Shown in pieces: positions 1 through 17,920 of a DNA stretch of 21,467 nt. The DNA is from Promethearchaeota archaeon (GTDB taxonomy: Archaea > Asgardarchaeota > Lokiarchaeia > Sigyniarchaeales > SOKP01), in NCBI GenBank assembly GCA_048938895.1, contig JBHLLU010000050.1, forward strand, positions 1 through 21,467, read 5' to 3'. The notes under the pieces are model-generated. The model had not been told where the DNA came from, ran no database searches, and saw only the letters and a program-made list of their open reading frames with translations. Within the stretch, counting starts at the first letter, position 1, and each line of letters starts with the position of its first letter. Both the position numbers and the translations under genes were made by a program.

Positions 1-2273
1 GGAGTAAAAGCAAAGTTAGCTGCTTTTAAGGCATTGTATCCAATTAATAATCCTTTTTTACGGTCAGTGAGTGCCATCCATCCATCAGATACATTTGCGA
101 CTAGACAAGCGATATCGGAATTTCGAGAATCTACCTTATCCATATCCAGATCAAAATGAGATATCCTCCCAAAGTAATTTTTTTTCCATATTCTTAGAAA
201 GTTTTCATTTCCAATCAACTTCGGTTTGATCTCACAGGGCATAACCTCACGCCAACGAACATCATAGGTTGTATACACTGATGAGGTATCATTTACAAAA
301 AAATCTTCTCCTTGAATATCACAAAATTCTATTTCATTTTCAATAAATAGATATGATTGATGTGCATAAAGAGTCAATTTTTTATGTGAGATAACCAGAA
401 ATCCTTTAAGAATCTCAAATTTACTACTTATAGCTACTGCTGCGGAAAACCCATCGCTACCATCCCTAAGTACTTTTAATTCATTCTTTGTTGATGCATA
501 CCTGCTTGGATTTTTTTTATTTCCAAAAGAGACCGCAGTTTCAAGGAAATCTTTTTCCCCGTATTCTTCACTATTGAATTTAAATGATATTACCTTGCTT
601 TGATTATCAAATGTAATTTTAATAAAACTATTAGAGAGTGAATGATTGTTAGCTTGAAGATTATCATCCCTTTCAAAATCTGATTTTGAAGAGAGATTTA
701 GATTTAAATTTAACCATTGTTTATCGGTTTTAAATTTTAATTTTGGTATAATAAATTCAAGCGTAAATACAGATTCAGATCTATTATCTTTATAAATACC
801 ATATTGGATATTTTCATCAATGGAAATAGCTTTTTGATTTTTTGAAATTTCTGAACTTAATTCTTTAGGTAGTTTAAATTTAAGAAGCAAATCCGAATCA
901 ATAATTAACTTTTCCTCTTCTGAGAGACCACGGTTGATGATTGGAAAAATTTGGAGAGAATACTGACCTTTTTGTTCCAATTCATTTAATTTTTTGTTAG
1001 TTTCATCAAACGCTATTTCAAATGCTTTCCTTGAAGCTTCATGAGCTCTATAAACATATGATATTGCAGTTTTAATCCTTTGCGGATGCAAACGAGGAGT
1101 TGATAAGCCAAAATTTGTTGTTGAGGAGAAAAGACATTGATTTTTAATATAGGATTCTGCTAAATCTGATTTATCTCTAATTAATTTATGGATAGGAGTA
1201 GCTTTTTCTTTCGCAAATCTATTGGAAACTAATGTATCACATACGCATTTCAACCAACGAGCTTTTTGAGCGTATGTCCAAAATCGTGTGTTATCATACT
1301 TTTGTGCCCAACTATAAAATCCATTCCAAAGACCATCAGCAACGTCGGGATAGCATGTACATTCACCATGAATGGGTAATTTAGGTATAATATCTATTAA
1401 ATTGGCGAATTCGACATATTGCAATTTATCAACTGCTTTAGCAAATTCCCTTAATCCACCAGTTTTAGGCATCCAACGTAGAATTCTTGGTAATTTAATA
1501 CCAGTCCAATAATGAGCATCCATGTCAAAATTTATAAGAACTAGTGCATGACCATCAATTTCTCCCTTTTCCTGCATTCTTCTTATGAGTTTAAACCAAT
1601 GTTTAATAGAGAAATAGTCGACAATATCCCCAAAACCATAGATCGGAATTAAAAGTGTTGATGAATTTGAAACTGATGAATTAAGTTTCACTAATCCGTA
1701 TCTTTGATTTGCTTTTAGACGAGGAAAAAGAAAAGGGCGTAAAGAATCAAAAGCATATGTTGAATAATACATACAAATTCCTTTTATCCCCATTTCATTA
1801 TATAATTCAATAATCCCTTGAGTAAACATTGTTTCTTGAGTTCTTGCATATGGGGCAACTCTACCTGGAAATAGTTGGTTCAAACCGATTCCCATTTCAT
1901 TTTCTAAATACCAAGCATGATCATGTAAAAATTCTTCAGTATCGAGCATTGCTTGTCCTACATTAGCCCAAGAACCTATAATTACTTCATCCTTTTTTTG
2001 CTTACACCTTTCTATAACCCGATCCAAAACACTTTCCTGAAATTCCCTTTGCAGCTGGATTGACCAGAAAGTATCGGCGTAATCCCATGAGATTTTCATT
2101 GAACCGAAAGAAAAACCCTCATCTTCAATCATATCAAGAGTATCCAAAATCATCTCCATTATCTCAATATCTTTACCAAATCCCGCTACTCCTTTTGAAT
2201 CACCTCGATAAGAATGATAATAATTAATATGAGGAGACAACGCAAAATAGATTTTTTTATCCTCTAATTCCAA
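1..2273 (-). CDS. GH57/GH38-like glycoside hydrolase/deacetylase-barrel protein, at least 757 aa, truncated at the window edge (not in ORF track)
   Basis: Manual translation from TTG at 2273 gives MELEDKKIYFALSPHINYYHSYRGD...DEVIIGSWAN...ARTQETMF...VLINFDMDAHYWTG...DVADGLWNGFYSWAQ. The same frame is still open at the left edge (...KKGLLIGYNALKAANFAFT). Motif order resembles GH57 conserved regions: His motif, nucleophile Glu (TQE), acid/base Asp (FDMD) and a S-W motif. Confidence 0.7.
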   Translation of the reverse strand, partial: MELEDKKIYFALSPHINYYHSYRGDSKGVAGFGKDIEIMEMILDTLDMIEDEGFSFGSMKISWDYADTFWSIQLQREFQESVLDRVIERCKQKKDEVIIGSWANVGQAMLDTEEFLHDHAWYLENEMGIGLNQLFPGRVAPYARTQETMFTQGIIELYNEMGIKGICMYYSTYAFDSLRPFLFPRLKANQRYGLVKLNSSVSNSSTLLIPIYGFGDIVDYFSIKHWFKLIRRMQEKGEIDGHALVLINFDMDAHYWTGIKLPRILRWMPKTGGLREFAKAVDKLQYVEFANLIDIIPKLPIHGECTCYPDVADGLWNGFYSWAQKYDNTRFWTYAQKARWLKCVCDTLVSNRFAKEKATPIHKLIRDKSDLAESYIKNQCLFSSTTNFGLSTPRLHPQRIKTAISYVYRAHEASRKAFEIAFDETNKKLNELEQKGQYSLQIFPIINRGLSEEEKLIIDSDLLLKFKLPKELSSEISKNQKAISIDENIQYGIYKDNRSESVFTLEFIIPKLKFKTDKQWLNLNLNLSSKSDFERDDNLQANNHSLSNSFIKITFDNQSKVISFKFNSEEYGEKDFLETAVSFGNKKNPSRYASTKNELKVLRDGSDGFSAAVAISSKFEILKGFLVISHKKLTLYAHQSYLFIENEIEFCDIQGEDFFVNDTSSVYTTYDVRWREVMPCEIKPKLIGNENFLRIWKKNYFGRISHFDLDMDKVDSRNSDIACLVANVSDGWMALTDRKKGLLIGYNALKAANFAFT

Positions 2274-2418
2274 AATTTCCCAATCTCTTAAATTTAGAAT
2301 TAATGTAAGATAAAATATTAAAAAATTTAATAAGGTTTATCAATCTTTTTAATTAGTTAGCAATTCTGTGTTTTATATGAATATTATTTATATAGGATAA
2401 TTTTATATAATCAATAAT

Positions 2419-3510
2419 ATGGTGGGTAAAATTAATGTAGCATTAATTGGCGTTGGTGATGTTGCATGTGCATTAGTTCAAGGTGTTGAGAATTATAAGA
2501 GGAATAATGATAAGATTATTGGCATATTACCAGAAATTACACAATATAGTATTAATGATATAAATTTTGTCCTAGGTATAGATGTAAATTCTAATAAGGT
2601 TGGAAAGGATTTAAGTAAAGCAATTTTTGCTAGTCCTAATTGCAATATGAAACTCTATGAACCTGAATTTTTAAATGCTCCCGTTATCAAAGGTCCTATA
2701 ATGGATGGATTAGATAGTAATATAAAGAATATAATTCCAGTTGAGAATGAAAGTAAACCTGCAAATATTACTGAAGAATTAAAAAAGCATAATGTCGATG
2801 TTTCAGTCATTCTCCTTCCAACAGGTGCTCATCAAGCAGTCAGATTTTATGCTTTATGTGCTCTTGAAGCGGGATCATGTGTAGTAAATGGAATGCCATC
2901 TCCTGTTGTTAATGATCCTGATATTGTGAAAAAATCAGAGGAATTAAATTTATCCTTAATCGGAGATGATGTTAAATCTCAGATAGGGGCAACAATAATT
3001 CATAGAGCTTTAACTAATCTATTCCCTATGAGAGGTGCAATCTTAGACAGAACCATCCAATTAGATTGGGGTGGATGTAGTGATTTTTGTAATTTACTCA
3101 CTCCAATGCCTAGTGGAGAATTAAGATATGAACAAGGAAAAAGACAATCAAAAACAGAATCTGTGATCGCTAATCTTCAAAATAAAGATAATATCGATTG
3201 CCAAATTTCTGCTGTTGATTACATCCCATTTCTAAAAAATCAAAAAGAAGCTTATATGAGATTGGAGGGGAGAATTTTCGGAGGTGCTCCTGTGAGAGTT
3301 GATATTACTATGTTTGTTGAAGATGGTAATAATTCGGCAGGAATCATAACAGATTGTATTAGAATAAGTAAAATTGCCAAAGATAGAAACATCGGTGGTA
3401 TCCTTCATTCCGCTTGCTCTTTCTTTACTAAACATCCTCCTGAACAATTGGAGGATTATATTGCTAAAGAACGGCTCATAGAATTTATAAATAATAATTC
3501 AAGGTCTTAA
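2419..3510 (+). CDS. ino1: myo-inositol-1-phosphate (inositol-3-phosphate) synthase, archaeal/actinobacterial type
   Basis: Rossmann motif IGVGDVA; GDDVKSQIGATIIHR; GGxxDFxNL; SKTESV; D-x-x-NSAG; C-terminal KHPP. Confidence 0.92.
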   Translation: MVGKINVALIGVGDVACALVQGVENYKRNNDKIIGILPEITQYSINDINFVLGIDVNSNKVGKDLSKAIFASPNCNMKLYEPEFLNAPVIKGPIMDGLDSNIKNIIPVENESKPANITEELKKHNVDVSVILLPTGAHQAVRFYALCALEAGSCVVNGMPSPVVNDPDIVKKSEELNLSLIGDDVKSQIGATIIHRALTNLFPMRGAILDRTIQLDWGGCSDFCNLLTPMPSGELRYEQGKRQSKTESVIANLQNKDNIDCQISAVDYIPFLKNQKEAYMRLEGRIFGGAPVRVDITMFVEDGNNSAGIITDCIRISKIAKDRNIGGILHSACSFFTKHPPEQLEDYIAKERLIEFINNNSRS

Positions 3511-3546
3511 TATTTAGTAGAAAGTAATCCTTTCTTAAAATAAAGA

Positions 3547-4461
3547 TTAACCTTGTACTTTGGCAGGAGCACGATATATTTGCCTTCTGATAAAGAGAAT
3601 GTTATAAATGTAATCAGATATTAAACTAACTGCTTCTGGGACACTTCTAAAACTTGGAAAATCGTTGACATCAACGATATATGGTACTCCATCTTTATTT
3701 AAGATATAATCAATCCCAAAAATAGTCATACCCAATTTTCTTCCTAATCTTAATATTCTTCGTTTAAGCTGTTTATCAATAGGAACTCTCATATGAATAA
3801 GATCCAATGGGGATATTTCCGCTTTTTCTTGGATTCGGTTATGAGAAGTAATGGAGACAGCCCAACGGTCGATAATATAGATTTTATAGACGATTTCATA
3901 TTCTCCTATGTATTCTTGGAAGAATAAATTGTTGCCTTTAAATTCTGTTGTTATTTCCTTAAAATCAGGTATAGTTTCGGCGACTCCAAGAATTCTATCA
4001 TTTCTTGGAAGATAAGGAATGTTATGTGTATCTAATTTAATTATAATACTTTTTCCATTCTTACATGCTTCATACGCATCATTAAAGGAAGGATAAATCT
4101 TTGGTATATTCAATTTTTTACATTTTTGATTGAGAAAGCTAAAAGTATCTTTTCTACTTTCACAAATTTTAACTGAATCTAAGCTGTTTAACAAAGGGAT
4201 ATTAGGAGCATATTCTTTAATTGCATCATAAATAACTTGATTTGATCTTTCTGAATATAATTTCACAATTATTAAAGAAATTGGATACTTCTTTAACTTT
4301 TTTCTAAAATATTTAACATTAAATATATCTGGACCGTTCTTAAATAGGTTTACAATGGATATGTTATAGTTTTTACTACAAAATTTCTTGATCTTTTGAA
4401 AAATCTCGAGATCACGATTGCAAATAGCTCCAACGTAAATTCTATCGAGCTTACTTGACAT
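3547..4461 (-). CDS. ATP-grasp protein, ITPK1-like inositol phosphate kinase (copy A)
   Basis: IIVKL, FFQEYIG-x4-YKIYII, FGIDYI and YIVDVNDFPSF match the ITPK1 pattern HKL / VQxFI...YKVF / FGIDII / VIDINxFPGY. It has D-x-N where RimK has E-x-N. Confidence 0.8.
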   Translation of the reverse strand: MSSKLDRIYVGAICNRDLEIFQKIKKFCSKNYNISIVNLFKNGPDIFNVKYFRKKLKKYPISLIIVKLYSERSNQVIYDAIKEYAPNIPLLNSLDSVKICESRKDTFSFLNQKCKKLNIPKIYPSFNDAYEACKNGKSIIIKLDTHNIPYLPRNDRILGVAETIPDFKEITTEFKGNNLFFQEYIGEYEIVYKIYIIDRWAVSITSHNRIQEKAEISPLDLIHMRVPIDKQLKRRILRLGRKLGMTIFGIDYILNKDGVPYIVDVNDFPSFRSVPEAVSLISDYIYNILFIRRQIYRAPAKVQG

Positions 4462-4530
4462 AGTAAAAACCCTTTATTTTGTTAAATTATGAGTAAATTA
4501 TGTTATTTAAATATATTGATTGAGTATTTG

Positions 4531-4551
4531 AGAAAATTGTCTCAATTTTCT
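4531..4551. promoter_or_regulatory. 9-bp inverted repeat (AGAAAATTG-tct-CAATTTTCT) in the divergent intergenic region; candidate operator
   Basis: Perfect arms at 4531-4539 and 4543-4551, between divergent kinase genes A and B. Function is inferred only. Confidence 0.3.
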
Positions 4552-4688
4552 ATATAGATTAGATTTATATTTCAGTTCCATATTAAATAATTGTTAATTT
4601 AGTAAGAATTGGATTTAAATTAAGAAATTTTTAATACATAATTATAGATCATTTAAATTTTAAATAAAAAGCATCTAAGGTAAAGTCT

Positions 4689-5504
4689 GTGAAAAAAGTA
4701 GGAATCATTATTGATAGGTACCATTTAAAGTATAAAGTTACAGAATTTCTAAAGTACCTAAAAAGTAAAGCGGAAGTTAGAATTTATATTGAGGAAGATT
4801 TTCTGTTCAATAGTTCTGACTTATTGTTTGATGAAGACATCTTTTTTGTTAAAGGAAAAGGAGATCTAATATTAGCTCTTGTTAAATTAATAGAAGAGCA
4901 AACTGATATTCCTGTTATTAACTCTTACAAAGGTACTTGGTTAGCTATTAACAGATTTTTGAATAGTGTATTCCTAAAAAAAGCGGGTATACCGATTCCA
5001 GATTTTTGTTTAAATCCTAAAGGAATTATCCCTCCTTTTAAAGATTATATTATAAAAAATATTATTGATCAAAAAAACTATAAATTTAAGCCAATAGTGC
5101 ATAAAGAAAATGGGCAATTGAGAGTTGCTGATGAAAGAGCTCTTGATGAAGTTGATAAAACTGACCCAAAATATAATTATCTATATTATCAAGAATTTAT
5201 AAAAAGCAAGTGGGAATATAAGATTTATGGTATTGGGGAACAGGTTCTTTTCAACAGACAATTACCAATTCTAGTTAATCCCAATAAAATGGAGTCGAGA
5301 ATTGAAATAGAAGAGATTCCAGAATTGCGGGAATATTGTTATAAAGCAATGGAAACTATTGATTTAGAAGTCACGTCTCTCGATTTTTTAAAGTCAAAAG
5401 ATCAATTTTACTTAACCGATATAAATTGCACACCTAATTTTAATTATCTTAAGAATGGTCCTGAAATTGTAGCAAATTATTTATTAGAACAAGCAAAAAA
5501 ATAA
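4689..5504 (+). CDS. ATP-grasp protein, ITPK1-like inositol phosphate kinase (copy B), GTG start
   Basis: FFVKG, INS...NR, AGIPIP, YYQEFIK...YKIYGIG, SLDFL and LTDINCTPNF (D-x-N). AAGGT lies upstream of the GTG. Confidence 0.75.
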   Translation: MKKVGIIIDRYHLKYKVTEFLKYLKSKAEVRIYIEEDFLFNSSDLLFDEDIFFVKGKGDLILALVKLIEEQTDIPVINSYKGTWLAINRFLNSVFLKKAGIPIPDFCLNPKGIIPPFKDYIIKNIIDQKNYKFKPIVHKENGQLRVADERALDEVDKTDPKYNYLYYQEFIKSKWEYKIYGIGEQVLFNRQLPILVNPNKMESRIEIEEIPELREYCYKAMETIDLEVTSLDFLKSKDQFYLTDINCTPNFNYLKNGPEIVANYLLEQAKK

Positions 5505-5511
5505 TAAAGGG

Positions 5512-6315
5512 ATGAATATGAGTATTGGAATCCTCTCAAAAAGAAAAACCATGATGACGGCTAAATTGAAATCCTGTTTAAAGAAGAAAGGATTTAAGGT
5601 AGCAATTTACACTTTAGAAAACCTAATCATAGATGATTCACTTCTTAAGCACGACTTTTTTATATTGAAGTCAAAAAATCTATTTTTTCTATATGCAGGC
5701 TATTTCTTAGAAGCAAATAATATTCCTGTGATCCCAAAGCCAGATGTTTCATTAATTCAAAAAAATCGTATACAATCGCATTTTTTGATGAAAAAAATAC
5801 GTTTATTGTGCCCGGAAATATATTTAGGGACGCCAGAATCACTCAAAGCCAATTTAAATGAGTTTCCTTACATCCTAAAACCAATCATGGGATCAGGAAG
5901 TAAGGGTGTACGATTAATCAGATCAAAAAAAGATTTTATAACTTATCATAATGGGATTTTGTATGTGGAAAAATTTATCAATGGCATTCATTATAACGTT
6001 TATTTTATTGGAAATGAAATATGTACATTGGTTAAACCTCCTTTATCAAATGAGCATGTTGATATGAAAAAAATAAAGACTCCCGACGATATTCATAAAT
6101 TAATTGATATATGGAAAGATAGTTTTAAGGGAAATCTTTTATTTGGACACTTAGATATTGTGAGAGAAGAATTTACTGATAAATTATATGTAGTAGATCC
6201 TGGGTCATTTCCAGAATTTACAAATTGGAAGTGTGATGGTTCACCCCCCGAAAAAATCTGTGATTTGATACTAGAAAATGTGAAAAAATTATATCCTGCC
6301 ACAAATTTAAATTGA
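5512..6315 (+). CDS. ATP-grasp protein, divergent ITPK1/RimK-like (copy C)
   Basis: FPYILKPIMGSGSKGV loop, YVEKFING, FGHLDIV and YVVDPGSFPEF. It starts 7 bp after copy B, so they are probably co-transcribed. Confidence 0.7.
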   Translation: MNMSIGILSKRKTMMTAKLKSCLKKKGFKVAIYTLENLIIDDSLLKHDFFILKSKNLFFLYAGYFLEANNIPVIPKPDVSLIQKNRIQSHFLMKKIRLLCPEIYLGTPESLKANLNEFPYILKPIMGSGSKGVRLIRSKKDFITYHNGILYVEKFINGIHYNVYFIGNEICTLVKPPLSNEHVDMKKIKTPDDIHKLIDIWKDSFKGNLLFGHLDIVREEFTDKLYVVDPGSFPEFTNWKCDGSPPEKICDLILENVKKLYPATNLN

Positions 6316-6327
6316 GTAGAAGGTAAA

Positions 6328-7296
6328 ATGAGTACTCAAAAAGATATTGAAAAATCAAAGATTTATGGTGAAAAACAAAAAGTTAGATTATATAAAATAA
6401 AGCACTTTATCTTCGATTTTGGAGGGGTAATAGTAGAAAAAACATTTGTAATGAAAAACCTATTTGATATGCTAGATGCTGACTTAAATTTTAAATTACC
6501 TCGATTGGAAAATTCATACGTCAGGAAAATTAAACGGAGTTTAAGTTCAGGAAGGATTTCTTCTTATGAATTTTTAGAAAAAATATTTGATAAATTTTAT
6601 TATCCTTTCCAAAAAACTGGTGGTGCTTTACCTACAAAAAAAGTAAATATAGAATATTACGTAGAATTATGGTTTGATTTATACTCTCAAGTCACTAATA
6701 TTTCCTCAGATATGGCGGAGATTGTTGAAAGATTGCATCAAGCGGGATATATAGTGAGTTTGATGTCAAATACTCATGATATTCATGCTAAATCAAATAT
6801 GGTGAAGGGATTTTATGATATCTTTGATAATGTATTTCTCTCAAATGAAATAGGGTTAATTAAACCAGATATGGAGAAATATAAATACGTAATAAAGAAA
6901 CTTGATACATCTCCAAAAAAATGTATATTCATTGATGATAAAATTAAAAACTTAGTTCCTGCTAGAGAATTGGGAATCATAGTTATTAGATTTGAATCAT
7001 TCAAAAAATTTAAAGAAACATTAAACGAATTAGGGATTGGAAATATCAGTAAAGATCTTCGGCAGCAAATAAAAGACAAATACAAGAAATACAAAAAGAC
7101 CAAAAAAAAATATAAAAAAATAAAAAAAGAGTATAAAAAAGCAAAGAAAGAGTATTTAAAAAAGAAAGGGATTTCTCTCAAAAGGAGATTAGAATTTCAA
7201 CGGAAAAGAGCACGATATCATAAGATAAAATCAGAATATAAAAAGGAACGAGAAATTAAAAAAGAAGAACTTGTGTCCAAACTAAAAGTTACTTAA
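6328..7296 (+). CDS. HAD-superfamily phosphatase (YihX-like, subfamily IA) with a Lys-rich C-terminal extension
   Basis: Motif I FDFGGV, motif II MSNT, motif III KPD, motif IV FIDD. The last 74 aa contain 30 K and 6 R. It starts 12 bp after kinase C. Confidence 0.85.
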   Translation: MSTQKDIEKSKIYGEKQKVRLYKIKHFIFDFGGVIVEKTFVMKNLFDMLDADLNFKLPRLENSYVRKIKRSLSSGRISSYEFLEKIFDKFYYPFQKTGGALPTKKVNIEYYVELWFDLYSQVTNISSDMAEIVERLHQAGYIVSLMSNTHDIHAKSNMVKGFYDIFDNVFLSNEIGLIKPDMEKYKYVIKKLDTSPKKCIFIDDKIKNLVPARELGIIVIRFESFKKFKETLNELGIGNISKDLRQQIKDKYKKYKKTKKKYKKIKKEYKKAKKEYLKKKGISLKRRLEFQRKRARYHKIKSEYKKEREIKKEELVSKLKVT

Positions 7297-7312: not shown

Positions 7313-8419
7313 TTAACTATCATCTGTTTGTTCAGTTTCTTTATTGAAGTCTTCTATTTTTTGCATTACAGAATCAGATGGTGTTGGTGGTAATGGAATT
7401 TTCTCATAAACTTCAATAAACTTCACATCATCAATTTCATTTGCCATATAGGCCTGTAAATCCATTGCTAACCCAAATTTTACGTAAGTCAGGTTTTGAA
7501 AGAGAAACATCTTTGGAATGGTGATTTCGAGTGTTTTACTCTTAGGAATATAACTAACTTGAAAATCTGAAACATTTTCAGAAGGAATACCTTTGTTAAT
7601 CATAAAATATTCTATCTTTTCATTGAAATCTTCGACTTTATCTATTATTTCTAGATTATAATCAATACTTTGCCCCGCTAGGGGATGATTATAATCGACA
7701 ATAACTCTTCCCTGAACAACATTTGTTACTGTCCCTCTTTGCATTTGTCCTTGAGATTGTTTAACGAATTCCTTACCAATCTCAGGATTCTTTCCTTCAT
7801 TTAATCGCCTAAATTTTGCAATACCTATTCTTTCAATTTTCTGTGGATCACGTTTACCATAGGCTTTATTGGGTGGAATTCTAACAGACTTCTTCTCAAA
7901 GAATTTCATATCTTTAATGACTTCAGTTAATCCTTCATTTAAAAACCCTGGTTTGCCTACAATTACAAATTCAGGGGTGTACATTCCTTGCTTAGCATTA
8001 TTCTCATCATAAATACCTGCTTTTTTAGCATCTTCTTCTGAAGAAACTCTAAATATCGTTCCTTTTTGAGTGCGTGCAGTGATTTTGAGTAATATAAAAT
8101 CACCATCATTCACCTGTTGACCTTGTAATTTCTTCTTCTTCTCTTCAATTCTTTTTTGTTCTTCTTGAAACTTCTCTAATTCTTCTTTATCGTTTTCTAG
8201 TTCCTCAGTAGTGGTTGATGAATCATCTTTCACTGTACTGTCTAATAAGATTCTGGCGCTTTCAATAAATTTTTCAGCACTTGCTTTCCCAATACCTTTA
8301 AGAGATACTAATTCATCAACATCTGCGTTTGCTAGTTTTTCAACAGAATCTATCCCAGCTTCTTTAAGAGTATCTTCCTTCTTACCCAGACCTTTTATAT
8401 CACTTAAATTATAACTCAT
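7313..8419 (-). CDS. Long-type archaeal FKBP (SlyD/FKBP26-like) chaperone with an N-terminal helix-hairpin-helix domain
   Basis: IKGLG and LKGIGKASAEK are HhH motifs, followed by an acidic linker. FKBP motifs are AKKAGIY, IPPNKAYGKRD and VDYNHPLAG, and the C-domain ends in VKFIEVY. ATG at 8419 follows AGGGG (the track uses TTG 8425). Confidence 0.85.
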   Translation of the reverse strand: MSYNLSDIKGLGKKEDTLKEAGIDSVEKLANADVDELVSLKGIGKASAEKFIESARILLDSTVKDDSSTTTEELENDKEELEKFQEEQKRIEEKKKKLQGQQVNDGDFILLKITARTQKGTIFRVSSEEDAKKAGIYDENNAKQGMYTPEFVIVGKPGFLNEGLTEVIKDMKFFEKKSVRIPPNKAYGKRDPQKIERIGIAKFRRLNEGKNPEIGKEFVKQSQGQMQRGTVTNVVQGRVIVDYNHPLAGQSIDYNLEIIDKVEDFNEKIEYFMINKGIPSENVSDFQVSYIPKSKTLEITIPKMFLFQNLTYVKFGLAMDLQAYMANEIDDVKFIEVYEKIPLPPTPSDSVMQKIEDFNKETEQTDDS

Positions 8420-8515
8420 AATCAACCCCTTATATTTATATTAAAAGATTTAGAATAAAGAGTTAGGATGTTAAATATTATATTACTTTTAGATTTTTCT
8501 AATTACAAAGTGCTA

Positions 8516-9628
8516 TTATGATACAGGTTCATAAAGAATTCCTAAATCATCAGCATACTTTTTTACTTCATTCATTTCATTTGCATTTGGGCGACGGTTT
8601 ATCTCAGAAAACTGATAGGCTTTATATTCTGGTCTATATTGGCCCATGATATTTACTACTGATTTAGGGATTTCTTTAGCAATATAGTTTAATATTGGTT
8701 TTGAACAACATTCGATATGATTTGGCATAACTAGGTGTCGTATGCAGATCTCTCCACTACCTTCATCATGAATTCTTTTTAAATTCCTAGTTAAAATATC
8801 ATAATAGTGATCTATACCGGAATACTTTTTAGCGCAAATATTATTACCATATTTGAAATCAGGTAACCAGAAATCCATGAAGTCTATTATCAACGAAAGA
8901 GATTTATCAGTTAGAAAAAAATTAGAATTCCATAATTGACAGATGTTAGATTCTTGGAAATTTAAACTACCGATTATAGTGTGAATATTTGGAATAGGGT
9001 CTCCTCCAACATAGTTAATATTTATCGCACCTCTATCTACTAGCTTTTCGGCAATAGTAGCTAATTTTTTTGGATCTACTTTTTGAGCTATATCATCTAA
9101 AGCTTTCTTTCCTTTCCAGGCTTGTGAAATATCGTAATTTTGACAGAAGACACAACCAAAATTGCATCCCTGAAAAAAAATTGTCCCGCTCGGTATTAAG
9201 ACACTTTCCTCTCCCATATGAAGAAACGCTGAAGTAACGTATGAGTCTTTAGATATCAAACAGAATCCTTTTTCCCCAGCAATTCGATTTACTTCACATT
9301 TGCGTTCACAAAAAATACAGCTCTCTAAGTATTTTTTTGCTATTGTCTCGATTAAAGAGATATAATTGTTTTTTTCAATATGACGGTTTTCTAAATCAGA
9401 AGTTTCATACTTAAGAAGTTCGTTAAATAAATGTGATTTCTCCTCTAATAAATTCTCTAAGATTTCAATGGGATCATTGAGATCGAATTTACATTCTATG
9501 GTTTGAGCAATTAAATACCTTGCTAAATGAGTTCCCTCAATAATTCCTCGATATCTTGAATAACGTTTGAGAATTTCCTTATTCTGCCAAACTGTCTCTG
9601 AATCTGGTCTAAGGACTCTAAAAACCAT
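8516..9628 (-). CDS. Radical SAM protein, PflX-like (COG1313)
   Basis: CIFCERKCEVNR-x4-KGFC auxiliary Cys motif, HMGEE, SGTIFFQGCNFGCVFCQN (CxxxCxxC), DFKYGN, RHLVMP and NIMGQYRP. Confidence 0.88.
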   Translation of the reverse strand: MVFRVLRPDSETVWQNKEILKRYSRYRGIIEGTHLARYLIAQTIECKFDLNDPIEILENLLEEKSHLFNELLKYETSDLENRHIEKNNYISLIETIAKKYLESCIFCERKCEVNRIAGEKGFCLISKDSYVTSAFLHMGEESVLIPSGTIFFQGCNFGCVFCQNYDISQAWKGKKALDDIAQKVDPKKLATIAEKLVDRGAININYVGGDPIPNIHTIIGSLNFQESNICQLWNSNFFLTDKSLSLIIDFMDFWLPDFKYGNNICAKKYSGIDHYYDILTRNLKRIHDEGSGEICIRHLVMPNHIECCSKPILNYIAKEIPKSVVNIMGQYRPEYKAYQFSEINRRPNANEMNEVKKYADDLGILYEPVS

Positions 9629-9655
9629 AATAAATTAATAAAAATTATTGAGTAG

Positions 9656-10387
9656 CTAAACCTCAAATGATAACCATTCAATGATATTTGTTAAGAATTT
9701 TAAATTATCACCAGCATCTAAGCCAAAATCACCATCTTCTGTAAGCCAATCAGATGATCCTATAGTTACGCAACGGCCTTCATAAAATTCAGAAACAGCA
9801 CATACGGGAACAGGCCCAAGAGCGCCTAAATCATCATCCACGTAATATTTAAATTCAGCTTTTTCAGAAGTTATAATTATATCATCTACATCCTCTTCTG
9901 AGATTGTAAAGAAAGTACAATTAGGTAAAACTAATTCAGTAATCCCTTCTGTGATGGGATGATTAAATAATTCTGTAACTAATAAATTCCTTTTCTTGAC
10001 CAAAAAGTTTGATGGTGCTTCTTGGATGATCCCATTCCAAAACCTACGAACTCCAGTTATCTTATAGAGAACTCTTATTGAGCCTTGTTTCATGGGTATA
10101 TCTCTATCTCCCCCATCTCCACTAGTCAAAAAAAGACTTCCTCCTTCACCTATAAATTTCTTAATAGCTTTTAATTCCTCTTGAGTAAATTTATCGGATT
10201 TTCCACTTTGAGAATGTTGGATATTTCCAATAAATAAGATATCAAAATCTTCAAGCATATCAAAATCTATAGGACCTTCATTCTTGTCAATATATTCAAC
10301 CTCATAATCATCCTCTGTTAATGAAAACTCTGGAAATTCCTCAATTTTTTCCTTATGAGATAAGTCTACTACAATTCTATAGCTCAA
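9656..10387 (-). CDS. Stand-alone GIFT/DUF4350 (IFT52/GldG-like, class I glutamine amidotransferase-like fold) protein
   Basis: IVVDLSHKE, FTQEELKAIKKFIGEGGSLFL, HPITEGI, GRCVTIGSSDWL and DNLKFLTNIIEWL. TTG start preceded by GGGTGA. Confidence 0.65.
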   Translation of the reverse strand: MSYRIVVDLSHKEKIEEFPEFSLTEDDYEVEYIDKNEGPIDFDMLEDFDILFIGNIQHSQSGKSDKFTQEELKAIKKFIGEGGSLFLTSGDGGDRDIPMKQGSIRVLYKITGVRRFWNGIIQEAPSNFLVKKRNLLVTELFNHPITEGITELVLPNCTFFTISEEDVDDIIITSEKAEFKYYVDDDLGALGPVPVCAVSEFYEGRCVTIGSSDWLTEDGDFGLDAGDNLKFLTNIIEWLSFEV

Positions 10388-14408: not shown

Positions 14409-14519
14409 AATAATTCTATATTTGTAATTATTGAATTTATGAGTTAAAAAGCAAGAAATACTAAACTTAATTAATTTTTCAAATTTAAAAATCTCAATTA
14501 AATTAAAAATGTGAAAATT

Positions 14520-15632
14520 ATGACTGATCTTCATTTTAATAAGAAAAGTGGTTCTCAATTAACTTTATTTACACCTGGACCTGTTCATATCCCAGAAAGA
14601 GTTCTCAAGGAATTAGCAAAACCAAATGATACACATAGATCAACAGCATATTCAGAAATGCATCAAATAGCTACTGAAGGACTTCAAAAGTTATTGTTTA
14701 CAAAAAATGAATGTTTAATATTTACTTCAAGCGCTACAGGCATCATGGAGGCATGTGTTAGAAATTTAGTTAAAGATGGTGAAAAGGCATTATTTTTATC
14801 AATTGGAGCTTTTGGGGACAGATGGTATGACATAGGAATATCCAACGGGAAGAATTCCATCAAAGAGGGTGTAGAATGGGGACATGCAATTACTGGTGAC
14901 TTTACTAAAAAAATCATGGAAAAAGAAAATTATTCTGTTGTTTTTATCCAAGCAAACGAAACTTCCACAGGAGTTTATAATCCGATTAATGAAATTGTTC
15001 CTATAATTAAAAGTTTCAACGCACTTGCTTGTGTTGATGCCACATCATCTATGGCAGGTATAAAAGTTGAGGTTGACAAACTAGGCATAGACGTTTGCTT
15101 AGCATCGGTTCAGAAGTGTTTTGCATTACCACCAGGCTTAGCTGTTTGTTCAGTTTCAGATGCTGCATTTGAAAAAGCTGAAAATGTGAAAAACCGAGGT
15201 TTATATTTCGATTTTATAGAGTTAAAGAAAAGAAATGCTAAACATCAGACTCCAACAACACCACCTATACCACAAATAAGAGGCTTAACTGCTCAATTAG
15301 ATTATATGTTAAATGAAGAAGGATTAGAAAATAGATTTAGAAGACATGAACAACTAGGTAAACAAACACGAGAATGGGTCAATAAGGTAAACCTTAAAAT
15401 GTTTCCCGAGAAAGGATATGAATCAAATACAGTCTCCACTATTAGAAATTCATTGAATCTTGATATACCAAAGATGGTTTCTATGCTTTTAGAAAAAGGT
15501 TATCGAATAGTTAATGGATACGGAGATCTTGTGAATAAAACTTTTCGAATTGGTCACATGGGAGAAATTCAAATTTCTGACCTTGATAAGATGTTAAATG
15601 TACTTTCAGATATCATAGCAAAGCTATCCTAA
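14520..15632 (+). CDS. Class V PLP aminotransferase (serine-pyruvate/alanine-glyoxylate or archaeal phosphoserine aminotransferase type)
   Basis: LFTPGP, HRS, SSATGIME, NETSTGV, VDATSS, SVQK (PLP Lys) CFALPPG, TPTTP and FRIGHMG. ATG 14520 is preferred over GTG 14511. Confidence 0.92.
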   Translation: MTDLHFNKKSGSQLTLFTPGPVHIPERVLKELAKPNDTHRSTAYSEMHQIATEGLQKLLFTKNECLIFTSSATGIMEACVRNLVKDGEKALFLSIGAFGDRWYDIGISNGKNSIKEGVEWGHAITGDFTKKIMEKENYSVVFIQANETSTGVYNPINEIVPIIKSFNALACVDATSSMAGIKVEVDKLGIDVCLASVQKCFALPPGLAVCSVSDAAFEKAENVKNRGLYFDFIELKKRNAKHQTPTTPPIPQIRGLTAQLDYMLNEEGLENRFRRHEQLGKQTREWVNKVNLKMFPEKGYESNTVSTIRNSLNLDIPKMVSMLLEKGYRIVNGYGDLVNKTFRIGHMGEIQISDLDKMLNVLSDIIAKLS

Positions 15633-15750
15633 TTAGGTTTGGTAAATTAAAAAACCCATCAAATTCCCTCATTTTTTTCAAAAACTCTTTAAAGATTTGT
15701 AACCTAAAAACACATATTCAATTACAGTATTATAAATCCAAGTGATCTTG

Positions 15751-16683
15751 ATGAAAATATTAATTAGTGATAAACTTCAAGATGAGGGCATCAAAATATT
15801 TGAAGATAACGGATTTGAGGTAATAAAGGATTTTACTATAAGTCATGACAAATTAAAAGAAGAAATAGCGAATTATGATGGCATAGTAATCCGCTCTAGA
15901 ACAGAATTGACCTCTGACATATTAGAAAATGCTAAAAATTTGAAAGTTATTGGTCGAGCAGGAGTGGGGTTAGATAATGTAGATCGTCAAAAAGCTGAAG
16001 AATTGAATATAGAAGTCTTAAATACTCCTGAAGCCCCTGCAATTTCAGTAGCTGAGTTTGCTTTAGGACTGATTCTAGCTTTGGCACGAAAAATTTCTTA
16101 CGCAGATCGCACCACTCATGAAGGAAAATGGAATAAAAATGAATGCTTAGGCTATACTTTAAATGGTAGAAAACTTGGTTTGATAGGATTCGGAAATATA
16201 GCGAAACATTTAGCTAAAATTGGACTGGGACTGGGTATGAATGTGGGAGTTTATTCAAGATTCAGCAAAGGTCAGGTTGCAATAGATGAAGCTAAAAATA
16301 TAGGTTGTTCTATTTACACCTCTATTGAAGAGTTATTAAAGGATGCTCAAATAATATCGTTACATCTTCCTGCGACACCTCAAACCGAAAATATTATCAA
16401 TCAAGAGCGTTTAAAGCTTATGAGAAATGACGCTATTCTTATAAATACTGCAAGAGGCAACTTAATTGATGAAGAGGCACTCCTTAAAGCTTTAAAAAAC
16501 AAAACTATAGGAGGCGCAGCACTCGATGTCTACCGTGAGGAACCTTTAAACAATGAAGATTTAATTTCCTGGAATGAGAATTTAATTATTACGCCCCATA
16601 TTGCCAGTCAAAGTATTGAAAATCAGGTTGATGCTGCTATAATGATTGCAGTAAAAATGTCTGATTATCTAAAAAAAAATTAG
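15751..16683 (+). CDS. D-2-hydroxyacid dehydrogenase, SerA-like (no ACT domain)
   Basis: GRAGVGLDNVD, SVAEF, GLIGFGNIA, INTARG, LDVYREEP and TPHIAS. ATG 15751 is preferred. Confidence 0.88.
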   Translation: MKILISDKLQDEGIKIFEDNGFEVIKDFTISHDKLKEEIANYDGIVIRSRTELTSDILENAKNLKVIGRAGVGLDNVDRQKAEELNIEVLNTPEAPAISVAEFALGLILALARKISYADRTTHEGKWNKNECLGYTLNGRKLGLIGFGNIAKHLAKIGLGLGMNVGVYSRFSKGQVAIDEAKNIGCSIYTSIEELLKDAQIISLHLPATPQTENIINQERLKLMRNDAILINTARGNLIDEEALLKALKNKTIGGAALDVYREEPLNNEDLISWNENLIITPHIASQSIENQVDAAIMIAVKMSDYLKKN

Positions 16684-16692
16684 TTAAATTTT

Positions 16693-17895
16693 TTACTTTT
16701 CTTTTAAATCATGTAAAATTAATCCTGATAGTAATTTTGGATCAAACCAAGTTGATTTAGGAGGCATTACTTCTCCATTGTTTGCAATCGATTCTAAATC
16801 TCTTATGTGAACGGGAAATAAATTAATAAATAAATCATTTCCCTTTTCAGTTATATATTTCTCCATTTCTTTGGGATCTTTGATACCTCCGACGAAGAAA
16901 ATGTTATTGTCAGCACGAGGATCTTCTATACCTAGAATTGGTTCTAATATATTATCTTGAATAAGGACTACATCCAAAGAATCTCTTTTAGTTTTGAACT
17001 TCTTATTCTTAACCTCTAATTTATACCATGTACCCATAAGACAAATAGCAATTTCATTTTTTTTCATTGGATTAAAAGCATGTTCTTTTAATTCTAAATA
17101 AAAAAATTGCTCCAATTTCTTAAGAAAATCACTTTCTGGCAAAGGAAGTCTTTTAATTACACGATTATATGGTAGTATACGAATTTGATCATCCGAAGCT
17201 AGATATGTCAAGAGAAATTGCCATGGCTCCTCAAGGTTTTCACTTTTTTCGGCCTTTTGTAGTTTCATTCTACGATACTCAGCAGCACTTGCCGCTCTGT
17301 GATGTCCATCGGCAATATATACTTTTTCTTTCTTAAATAGGTTTTGAAATTTACTAATAACTTTTGAATCTGTTTCTTGCCATAAAATATGGTGATAATC
17401 ATATTTTTTAAATTCGAATTTTGGTTTTTTTGTTTTTATTTTCTCAATAAGCTGATTTATCTTGTTGTTAGATTTAAAAACTGTCCAAACTAAACCAGCA
17501 GCTACATTAGTTTCAACAATATGATTTATTCTGTCTTTCAGTGGTTTCTCCCTTGTATGTTCATGTTTAACAATATTCCCATCCTCATAATCTTTAAGAG
17601 CTATTCCAACAATTAGTCCCTGATGGCCGAAATTTTCTGATTCTTGACGGTATACAAAGATGCTTAGTTCATTCTCTCGTATAATTATTTCTTTATCTTT
17701 AAATTGATAATATGCTTTCGCACCATTCTTATAAATTTCATCTCCTTTTCCATCTGGTAAAATAAGATGTATCAGTGAATCAGGGATTTTCTTTAATTCT
17801 AGTTCTTCCTCTTTGCTAATAATATCATAAGGATTAGTACAGAATTCTTCTGGATTCACAGGAATAAAAGGTCTAATTGGAGATACATGTACCAT
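16693..17895 (-). CDS. DUF1015 family protein (ParB/Srx-like DGHHR motif)
   Basis: PYDII, KHEHT, YIADGHHRAASA, ILPYNRV and MPPKSTWFDPKLLSGL. ATG at 17895 (MVHVSPIRPF) is the likely start. Confidence 0.9.
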   Translation of the reverse strand: MVHVSPIRPFIPVNPEEFCTNPYDIISKEEELELKKIPDSLIHLILPDGKGDEIYKNGAKAYYQFKDKEIIIRENELSIFVYRQESENFGHQGLIVGIALKDYEDGNIVKHEHTREKPLKDRINHIVETNVAAGLVWTVFKSNNKINQLIEKIKTKKPKFEFKKYDYHHILWQETDSKVISKFQNLFKKEKVYIADGHHRAASAAEYRRMKLQKAEKSENLEEPWQFLLTYLASDDQIRILPYNRVIKRLPLPESDFLKKLEQFFYLELKEHAFNPMKKNEIAICLMGTWYKLEVKNKKFKTKRDSLDVVLIQDNILEPILGIEDPRADNNIFFVGGIKDPKEMEKYITEKGNDLFINLFPVHIRDLESIANNGEVMPPKSTWFDPKLLSGLILHDLKEK

Positions 17896-17920
17896 AATAT
17901 TTATTAGAAGATACAAGTTC

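Follow-up and report, generated by a model that had tools for sequence, protein, structure and literature searches.

The window analysed here is a stretch of 21,467 nucleotides (nt) from a Promethearchaeota archaeon of the Lokiarchaeia (GenBank assembly GCA_048938895.1, contig JBHLLU010000050.1, positions 1 to 21,467). Its first 7296 nt carry a gene for an inositol-phosphate synthase (ino1, here called MIPS), three ATP-grasp genes designated gA, gB and gC, a gene for a HAD phosphatase and a gene for a GH57-like protein. We read this region as an extended soluble inositol-phosphate cluster in which gB acts as a phosphotransferase, and we give this reading a probability of roughly 0.5. The cluster would be a lipid-independent one, belonging to a single Lokiarchaeia-type Asgard family. 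In it, MIPS is flanked by two divergent ATP-grasp kinases of the ITPK1 family. One is gA; the other, gD, is encoded by a fourth ATP-grasp gene outside the window, on the contig that adjoins it. The two presumably phosphorylate inositol monophosphate (InsP1) stepwise to higher inositol phosphates, as the text sections of Desfougeres et al. (2019, PNAS, PMC6900528) report for a Lokiarchaeum homologue in yeast. A tight gB-gC-HAD operon, divergent from gA, shares its inheritance with MIPS-gA across the family. Within this operon gB most likely encodes another phosphotransferase, with an inositol phosphate as its substrate, as suggested by a compact LysX/RimK/PPIP5K-like fold with Lys and D-x-N at the catalytic positions. 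gC, a duplicate of gB that lacks two canonical catalytic residues, most likely serves as a non-canonical or regulatory partner, and HAD would be a dispensable accessory phosphatase. The core of MIPS and ITPK-type kinases is already published and is not new. The gB-gC(-HAD) extension appears to be undescribed: no description of it was found in the literature on Asgard and archaeal ITPK1 and inositol phosphates, where the figures and supplementary information of PMC6900528 may bear on the point.

Layout, core genes and distribution of the cluster

Six open reading frames (ORFs) occupy positions 1-7296 of the window. These ORFs, two features connected with them, and gD were as follows.

3..2273, minus strand: GH57-like gene, coding for the N-terminal 757 aa of an approximately 929-aa GH57/GH38-clan-like protein, frame open at the window start
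2419..3510, plus strand: ino1/MIPS, myo-inositol-1-phosphate (inositol-3-phosphate) synthase
3547..4461, minus strand: gA, candidate ITPK1-family ATP-grasp kinase, convergent with ino1
4462..4688, intergenic: 227-bp AT-rich spacer between gA and the divergent gB-gC-HAD operon
4689..5504, plus strand: gB, orphan ATP-grasp protein with a predicted LysX/ArgX/RimK- and PPIP5K-like fold and kinase-type motifs
5512..6315, plus strand: gC, paralogue of gB with a predicted ArgX/LysX-like fold
6328..7296, plus strand: HAD-IA phosphatase, last gene of the gB-gC-HAD operon
7045..7293, plus strand: Lys-rich C-terminal tail of HAD, residues 240-322
Adjoining contig C85: gD, fourth ATP-grasp gene, 298 aa, Ins134_P3_kin match of 47.2 bits

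An earlier note on this DNA had described ino1 as immediately followed by three ATP-grasp genes, the second and third of them separated from each other and from the HAD gene by only 7 and 12 bp. Both spacers are exact on the coordinates (gB to gC 7 bp, gC to HAD 12 bp), and the three ATP-grasp genes do lie where they were placed, but gA runs on the minus strand, converging on ino1, and therefore does not sit in one transcription unit behind it. The GH57-like gene and ino1 are transcribed divergently, as are gA and the gB-gC-HAD operon, and the spacer at 4462..4688 is presumed to be the shared promoter region of gA and that operon. A scan for sigma-70 promoters and terminators gave no terminator and was set aside, since such a scan does not suit archaeal DNA. 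The window starts at a contig end, namely the start of contig C81 in a 4.65-Mb genome of 174 contigs and 98.7% completeness. The public names of close homologues likewise point to Promethearchaeota, the Loki-type Asgard archaea, and the sequencing runs listed as containing this DNA comprise 11 DNA runs of five studies and no RNA run. Its nucleotides 1-77 were identical to the final 77 nt of contig C85 (locus L001, G000:C85 17924-18000), and the two contigs very probably join. Across this overlap the GH57-like frame reaches about 929 aa and is followed by a transporter of the major facilitator superfamily (MFS; MFS_1, 156 bits) and then by gD. Beyond gD, contig C85 carries UppP/BacA, a low-molecular-weight (LMW) phosphotyrosine phosphatase and an isochorismatase.

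The reaction of MIPS turns glucose-6-phosphate into Ins(3)P. The window protein matched PF01658 with 71 bits (cut-off 27) and TIGR03450 with 293.9 bits over residues 5-357 of 363, the latter being under the equivalog cut-off of 638 for this mycothiol-type model. The gene was single-copy in a tblastn search of the whole window genome. A different arrangement was seen in locus L070 (G240:C9, 4481-7953), where three tandem MIPS-like genes, 33%, 40% and 78% identical to the window MIPS, lie upstream of gA-gB-gC.

The two flanking kinases could be placed by profile. gA matched the Pfam family Ins134_P3_kin (PF05770) with 27.5 bits (cut-off 23), over its C-terminal approximately 67 residues only, and its best solved relatives were human ITPK1 structures 2q7d and 2qb5 (E 1e-5). 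gD was well above the same cut-off, and all nine matches of its profile in the Protein Data Bank (PDB) were ITPK1 or ITPK4. With a joint gA and gD profile the top nine PDB matches were again all ITPK1/ITPK4 (E 7.5e-13 to 2.2e-10), while RimK reached only 2e-6. By hhalign the relationship of the two proteins has a probability of 98% (E 2.3e-13), and R156 was invariant in all 31 aligned sequences of the gA and gD types. Since the text of PMC6900528 names Arg156 in LcIKC, gA is probably of the LcIKC type. The inositol-phosphate contacts given there for human ITPK1 are H167, K199 and R212; in a HMMER alignment to plant ITPK1, which covers the C-terminal part only, the column of Zm H192 (human His167) is occupied by Glu for gA and by Cys for gD.

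The statement of the earlier note that ITPK1 homologues are known from Asgard archaea was borne out by the same source, whose text sections include both MIPS-flanking ITPK1 homologues and a plc1-delta test. According to them, Lokiarchaeum has four ITPK1 homologues, LcIKA-D, with pairs flanking two IPS genes, and LcIKC partly restores inositol hexakisphosphate (IP6) in yeast plc1-delta. Failure of gB and gC in the ITPK1 models suggests that genes of the gB and gC types are not among LcIKA-D, and any mapping of LcIKA-D onto gA-gD would likewise be tentative.

A six-frame search with PF05770 was made in 301 genomes of the phylum, the sample used throughout, and in 14 control genomes. Matches occurred in 66 genomes, and their distribution was narrow: 64/68 in the family of the window (f1), 1/7 in family f2, 0/225 in 28 other families and 0/14 in the controls. 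No genome had more than two matches, and the listed ones were of gA or gD type wherever a locus map exists.

Gene order was compared in 19 loci of the same genus as the window (g1), which were chosen around gA orthologues, and in 17 further loci of the family that lie outside this genus and were picked by their matches to gC. The order in the genus, wherever the contig reaches, was isochorismatase, LMW phosphatase, UppP, gD, a slot of 60 bp to 9 kb, MIPS, gA, gB, gC, HAD, FKBP, radical SAM and an IFT52-like gene. MIPS and gA were present in all 19 loci, gB in 18, and gC, HAD and gD in 17 each. Seventeen of the 19 kept the order MIPS-gA-gB-gC; one of the remaining two reaches its contig end after gA and one breaks inside gB. 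In the single-contig genome of locus L029 (G006:C1, 11053-11517) gB stops after 155 codons, and the following 8 kb gave no match to gC, HAD, FKBP or radical SAM, which may reflect a rearrangement or a fault of assembly or masking. The same order was found in 16 of the 17 loci from other genera, with the last one cut by its contig end (gB 17/17, gA and MIPS 16/17 each).

Orthologue-level matches to gB and gC were found only in family f1, and were spread over its genera as follows.

g1: gB 20/22, gC 20/22
g14: gB 24/27, gC 23/27
g16: gB 5/5, gC 5/5
g17: gB 2/2, gC 2/2
g19: gB 0/1, gC 1/1
g13, g15, g18: gB none, gC none

There were several observations which argue that MIPS-gA-gB-gC is one unit. 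Firstly, gB and gC adjoin MIPS-gA in every locus of the family where the contig reaches. Secondly, genus g15 retains the flanks together with gD, MFS and the GH57-like gene, and is missing exactly the block MIPS-gA-gB-gC-HAD. Thirdly, orthologous MIPS, gA and gB were jointly absent from genomes G012 (99% complete), G018 (98%) and G013 (92%), with gC also absent from G012; G012 and G018 keep only a MIPS paralogue of 40-43% identity and about 386 aa. Finally, genome G026, which belongs to another family, has a gA-like gene next to a gB-like one, with no MIPS and in a different context.

The points that weigh against such a reading come from the same loci. The genes are contiguous, and therefore each pattern of presence and absence can be explained by a single insertion or deletion; one deletion could account for what G012, G013 and G018 jointly lack. 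Related genomes are not independent observations. Moreover, the whole neighbourhood of 15-20 kb is colinear in the family, including isochorismatase, LMW phosphatase, UppP, FKBP, radical SAM and the IFT52-like gene, and therefore synteny does not single out gB, gC or HAD. It could thus be that only gene order was inherited, with no common function beyond MIPS, gA and gD, and that gB, gC and HAD are mere conserved neighbours like FKBP and radical SAM. The flanking housekeeping genes indeed keep their order in nearly all of the 36 family loci examined, and in family f2 a single ITPK-like ATP-grasp gene adjoins the same HhH-FKBP gene (L098, L101) in the absence of MIPS, gB and gC. We nevertheless consider this explanation unlikely, given that the 7- and 12-bp gaps indicate one operon, that gA and gB have a divergent promoter region in common, and that the missing block in g15 with both flanks kept, the joint absences and the isolated pair in G026 all set these genes apart from their neighbours.

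Folds and motifs of gB and gC

The earlier note had taken all three ATP-grasp genes of the window as ITPK1-like kinases. Only gA kept this assignment: gB gave no PF05770 match at E<=0.1, and gC, with 18.8 bits, stayed under the cut-off of 23. The predicted models of both proteins were of high confidence (predicted local distance difference test 91.7 for gB and 92.0 for gC; predicted template modelling score 0.89 and 0.88), and they were compared by VIA-align with 48,161 PDB representatives. The folds closest to them are given below, with root-mean-square deviation (rmsd) where recorded.

ArgX 3vpb: gB Z 22.7, rmsd 3.0, 252 residues aligned; gC Z 25.6, rmsd 2.3, 253 residues aligned
LysX/ArgX 5k2m: gB Z 22.7; gC Z 25.6
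RimK: gB Z 22.0; gC Z 22.5-22.6
PPIP5K2 kinase domain 3t54: gB Z 20.9, rank 4; gC Z 19.3, rank 20
Human ITPK1: gB Z 18.9, rank 8; gC Z 19.3, rank 19

The two proteins differed more clearly in Foldseek. For gC, ArgX (7e-17) and LysX (3.5e-15) led, and the first ITPK1 appeared at rank 50. For gB, LysX/ArgX (1.2e-14) was tied with PPIP5K2 (7.4e-14, with the highest TMq, 0.74), Asp1 and Vip1, and ZmITPK1 followed at 6e-13. Judged from the predicted model, an inositol-pyrophosphate kinase domain would therefore be an equally good fold match for gB on the strength of this tie.

Sequence families gave no firm placement for either protein. gB reached 15.4 bits in Pfam RimK (PF08443, cut-off 21), and its best NCBIfam matches were weak (MptN 47.7 bits; rimK_fam, TIGR00768, 38.2 bits with a cut-off of 143). 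gC matched Pfam ATP-grasp_3 with 29.6 bits and rimK_fam with 26.5 bits. The two matched each other by hhalign with E 1e-4 and a probability of 58%, and gave probabilities of 1-2% against gA, i.e., no specific relation. A search of the window genome with PF08443 found matches only on contigs C99, which holds a bona fide RimK of 131.5 bits, and C88. We had considered Pfam RimK versus Ins134_P3_kin as a decisive discriminator between ligases and kinases, and rejected it: many small bacterial ATP-grasp proteins match both, and the Ins134 matches rest on the C-terminal approximately 60 residues.

The motifs separated gB from gC and both of them from the ligases, as summarized here.

gA, gD and gB: strand K-(I/V)-Y-x-I-(G/D); metal motif D-x-N-x-x-P-x-F; Gly-rich loop after the ATP-binding Lys absent
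ITPK1: strand F-K-V-Y-V-V-G; metal motif D-I-N
LysX/ArgX/RimK: strand D-I-R-x-F-V-V-G; metal motif E-x-N; loop K-P-x-x-G-S-x-G
gC: strand Lys replaced by a variable residue; invariant metal motif D-P-G; loop K-P-I-M-G-S-G-S-K-G

The Asp of the C-terminal metal motif, reported in the earlier note for all three genes, is present in each of them (DVNDFPSF in gA, DINCTPNF in gB, DPGSFPEF in gC), gC however having it as D-P-G. A Lys at the position claimed to match the HKL lysine of ITPK1 is likewise found in all three (gA K67, gB K55, gC K53), but a basic residue there is not diagnostic, because LysX and ArgX have Arg at that position. In gB, K178 and D244-I-N246 were invariant in 28 aligned sequences, and the Gly-rich loop is missing. 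In gC, D229-P-G231 is invariant, so that Gly replaces the Asn of D-x-N in 27/27 orthologues, and the residue at the strand Lys position varied over 27 sequences, the variants including N (as in the window copy), L, T and I, while the canonical loop K-P-I-M-G-S-G-S-K-G (K-P-x-x-G-S-G-S-K-G) is kept.

Relatives of gB were collected by searching its profile against 1.84 billion representative proteins, which gave 305 at E<=1e-3 and 52 at E<=1e-10. The 38 full-length relatives in the latter group had Lys at the K178 position in 33 cases and D-x-N in 30. The 95 weaker full-length relatives, a lower tier rich in RimK, had Arg in 52 and E-x-N in 49. Pfam was run on 37 of the 38 close relatives, gB's own cluster representative being left out, and assigned no family to 21 of them, Ins134_P3_kin as best or only family to seven, and RimK as best family to nine. 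In the window genome the joint gA and gD profile ranked gB, at 40.0 bits, ahead of the true RimK of C99, at 29.8, and in family f2 the single Ins134-positive ATP-grasp genes matched gB, gA and gD about equally. On these sequence grounds gB appears intermediate between the ITPK1 and the RimK/LysX families, and sequence alone does not settle its chemistry.

It is possible, if less likely in our view, that gB and gC are RimK/LysX-type carboxylate-amine ligases, perhaps forming a heteromer, which couple an amino acid, for instance glutamate, to either a small molecule or a protein. Only gA and gD would then touch inositol, and the gB-gC-HAD operon would make a different product, perhaps an inositol-linked one, or be functionally unrelated. 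Several observations speak for such ligases and count against gB as a kinase. The amide ligases ArgX, LysX and RimK were the best fold matches for both proteins in VIA-align and Foldseek, with an rmsd of 2.3-2.6 for gC; the failure of gB and gC in PF05770 points the same way, and none of the four PDB matches of the gB profile was ITPK1. Orthologues of gB carry the NCBI label 'RimK family alpha-L-glutamate ligase', the Atlas neighbours of gC are RimK clusters, and the weak best NCBIfam matches of gB are of this kind too. The gB profile in the window genome ranked the C99 RimK (41.9 bits) above gC (31.5), gD (28.3) and gA (26.7), and a profile built from the nearest relatives of gB found LysX at 3.8e-28, with ITPK1 only at 1.7e-14 and PPIP5K2 only at 1.1e-11. 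Finally, gC retains the canonical ligase-type loop, and a kinase role of gC is doubtful because two catalytic residues are lost.

Against the ligases stands, first of all, that gB and gC remain under the RimK cut-offs in Pfam and NCBIfam, and that the Arg and E-x-N of LysX and RimK are replaced by Lys and D-x-N in gB and its closest relatives. gB is also without the Gly-rich loop, a bona fide RimK is already present elsewhere in the genome, the gB-gC pair strictly co-occurs with MIPS-gA, and PPIP5K shows that the fold can serve an inositol-phosphate kinase. A LysX/ArgX role through the LysW carrier was considered as well and discarded, no LysW being found in the window genome: TIGR01206 gave no match in it at 98.7% completeness, and the control search was positive in 4/14 genomes. 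The grouping with RimK and LysX, which the earlier note had named as the finding that would speak against its kinases, was thus seen in part: the folds of gB and gC are nearest to ArgX/LysX/RimK, but gB keeps kinase motifs and ties with PPIP5K.

A bolder proposal, which we regard as improbable, builds on that tie. gB, possibly together with gC, would be an archaeal counterpart of the PPIP5K/Vip1 kinase domain, a kinase of RimK fold that takes highly phosphorylated inositols as substrates and makes inositol pyrophosphates, and HAD would be the matching pyrophosphatase, its tail sensing or binding the polyanionic product; the absence of a general acid in HAD is the reason why it would suit phosphoanhydride leaving groups. 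If so, one Asgard family would carry a complete cycle from glucose-6-phosphate through InsP to inositol pyrophosphate (PP-InsP), made up of two different ATP-grasp kinase lineages that a local duplication produced before, or independently of, eukaryotes.

The HAD phosphatase and neighbouring genes

The HAD protein matched Pfam Hydrolase with 56.7 bits and TIGR02247 with 87.5 bits, under the cut-off of 125 for the latter. Its profile found the N-terminal phosphatase domain of soluble epoxide hydrolase (sEH; 3.5e-12) and YihX (4.5e-12) in the PDB. Motif I reads F-D-F-G-G-V, so that 'FDLGNV' of YihX aligns to 'FDFGGV'. Over 22 sequences the residues D30, S147/N148, K179 and D203 were invariant and D204 nearly so, and the general-acid Asp at D+2 is missing, with Gly32 in its place in 22/22. 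In HAD enzymes generally, a missing D+2 general acid favours substrates with good leaving groups. The window HAD would in this way fit glycosyl-1-phosphates or phosphoanhydrides better than plain inositol monoesters. Its C-terminal tail of 83 residues holds 38 K+R against 10 D+E, a net charge of +28, in repeats of the KKEYKKAKKEY type, and would bind polyanions. The basic character of this end is general, as the last 85 residues contained 28-43 basic residues in 22/22 orthologues.

Synteny of HAD with ino1 and the kinases, which the earlier note had expected in related genomes, was found in 17/19 same-genus loci, but there the whole neighbourhood is colinear, and HAD was present in 11 and absent in 6 of the 17 loci from other genera. 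It was duplicated in three of those 11. The duplications in genus g16 (L065, L066, L080) are in tandem after gC; the copies share 56-62% identity with the window HAD, and both keep the Lys-rich tail. Five genomes of 99-100% completeness keep the kinases with no orthologue of HAD anywhere, their best matches being 23-33% identical and tailless. Loss in 5/5 of these near-complete, kinase-bearing genomes makes HAD optional for the role of the kinases.

The GH57-like protein is a different case. The window protein had no Pfam match at E<=0.1, its nearest named clusters in a language-model Atlas were GH57 and GH38N (score 0.96), and its 137 homologues of about 930 aa are mostly from Promethearchaeota, one of them named from Ca. 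Lokiarchaeum ossiferum. PF03065 was reached by 2/16 aligned homologues (best E 3.9e-5), and the alignment profile gave no match in the PDB. On this sequence evidence the label 'GH57-like' is reasonable but unproven. The gene occurred in 24 of the 301 genomes (f1 14/68, f2 2/7, f26 7/21). Within the genus it was found in none of the 22 genomes apart from the window genome and at none of the 20 loci sampled, while genus g15 and families f2 and f26 have it unaccompanied by MIPS, gA, gB or gC, next to MFS and a Zn-dehydrogenase. Of the 17 loci from other genera, 12 had MFS and six had the GH57-like gene at full length, and there was one remnant of 90 aa. Eleven loci around GH57-like genes had MIPS in the stretch in only two cases and MFS nearby in seven. 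In three loci checked, one each from g14, g15 and f2, a Zn-dependent dehydrogenase of the MDR type lies between the GH57-like gene and MFS. This protein is of about 337 aa and resembles glucose dehydrogenase (L068:17362-18375, L086:7295-8308, L091:7602-8621); the window genome lacks this member of the three-gene sugar-type module.

The gD|MIPS slot, in which the window genome has its GH57-like and MFS genes, holds an unrelated ORF of about 810 aa or other cargo in other species of the genus. We asked if the approximately 810-aa ORF could be a diverged GH57-like gene, and found no similarity (best E 0.27). ORFs of about 800 aa outside any Pfam family occupy the slot at L030:6194-8626, L019:12175-14622, L017:6140-8575, and L026:2353-4734 and 7585-9972, and L017 additionally has a 1322-aa SBP_bac_5 protein there. 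The GH57-like gene and MFS are a separate, putative carbohydrate module in this variable slot, a neighbour and not a part of the inositol module.

These distributions also bear on the original proposal of the earlier note, a single make/phosphorylate/erase module in which the polybasic HAD is the dedicated eraser and which also includes the GH57-like enzyme and three ITPK1-like kinases. All of these genes are adjacent in the window genome, the GH57-like gene and MIPS point away from each other both here and at 6/17 loci from other genera, HAD is co-transcribed with gB and gC as judged by the short gaps, and the metal-motif Asp is common to the three ATP-grasp genes. We consider the proposal very unlikely all the same. 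The GH57-like gene drops out, having no place at the genus loci and occurring elsewhere without MIPS and kinases; the HAD is lost from kinase-keeping genomes and has no D+2 general acid, and its role as an eraser is unproven; gB and gC are not members of ITPK1, and gC lacks the Asn. What stands of the proposal is MIPS with kinases of the ITPK1 family.

Downstream of the operon the window carries a fusion of a helix-hairpin-helix (HhH) domain and an FKBP26-like peptidyl-prolyl isomerase, including IF and C-terminal domains (7313-8425, minus strand). At 9656-10387 (minus strand) lies the gene for a 243-aa protein matching the GIFT domain of the eukaryotic intraflagellar-transport protein IFT52 (PF23355, 28.9 bits, cut-off 27.2), a match which spans just 36 residues; the protein is 80-95% conserved within the genus and syntenic family-wide. 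A DUF1015 protein (16693-17916, minus strand) adjoins a class-V aminotransferase and a D-2-hydroxyacid dehydrogenase, a serine-pathway-like pair (14511-16683, plus strand). The remaining content of the window is housekeeping, i.e., a proteasome subunit, an EamA transporter and MGMT.

Significance and comparison with known systems

The usual view takes inositol polyphosphates and pyrophosphates for eukaryotic signals, and the ITPK1 homologues of Asgard archaea are the main argument for a soluble pathway that predates eukaryotes. In the sample searched here, ITPK-like genes are confined largely to one Asgard family (64/68 genomes, against 1/7 in the sister family and 0/225 elsewhere). Most of this family adds to the published MIPS/ITPK core an operon, inherited along with it, that has two ATP-grasp genes and often a lysine-tailed phosphatase, and the predicted fold of gB resembles a eukaryotic inositol-pyrophosphate kinase as closely as it does the amino-acid ligases. 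With gB as a kinase, the archaeal pathway would be richer than reported, and these small enzymes of about 270 aa would be suited for dissecting the change from ligase to kinase in ATP-grasp proteins. If gB and gC are ligases, the product of the cluster would be something other than plain inositol phosphates, and the idea of a eukaryote-like signalling system would have to be tempered.

The closest known system is the LcIKA-D/IPS arrangement of Lokiarchaeum, where MIPS (IPS) is likewise flanked by ITPK1 homologues in a Lokiarchaeal genome. Five of the same-genus loci (L014, L015, L018, L023, L024) have a compact gD-MIPS-gA order with little between the genes, which fits the LcIK pairs flanking IPS in the text sections of PMC6900528. 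These sections describe two IPS genes, whereas the window genome has one MIPS and four ATP-grasp genes, and they mention neither a further ATP-grasp pair nor a HAD or GH57-like gene.

ITPK1 itself (human 2q7d/2qb5, Entamoeba 1z2n, plant 7tn5/8oxe) has the ATP-grasp fold in common with these proteins. Its D-x-N-x-F-P metal motif and K-(V/I)-Y-x-(V/I)-G strand are shared with gA, gD and gB. gA and gD match it over the C-terminal third only, are of about 300 aa and have none of the eukaryotic insertions; they pass the Pfam model, while gB and gC fail it.

With LysX, ArgX and RimK (3vpb, 5k2m, 3vpd, 4iwx), which gave the best overall folds for gB and gC, the size is similar (270-290 aa) and the Gly-rich ATP loop is shared by gC. 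The D-x-R strand Arg and E-x-N of these ligases are, however, missing from both gB and gC, which also stay far under the family cut-offs (PF08443, TIGR00768, TIGR02144). PPIP5K, Vip1 and Asp1 (3t54, 3t9b, 8e1h, 9gr8) have a RimK-like ATP-grasp fold that acts as an inositol (pyro)phosphate kinase. They show no sequence-family match to gB, to which no histidine-phosphatase domain is fused, and gC is no close match to them (rank 20, Z 19.3).

For the HAD protein the closest solved relatives are YihX, the alpha-D-glucose-1-phosphate phosphatase of E. coli, and the N-terminal phosphatase of sEH (E 3.5e-12 to 5e-12). The unusual Gly at D+2 of motif I is common to YihX and the window HAD, whereas neither YihX nor sEH has a counterpart of the 83-residue Lys-rich tail.

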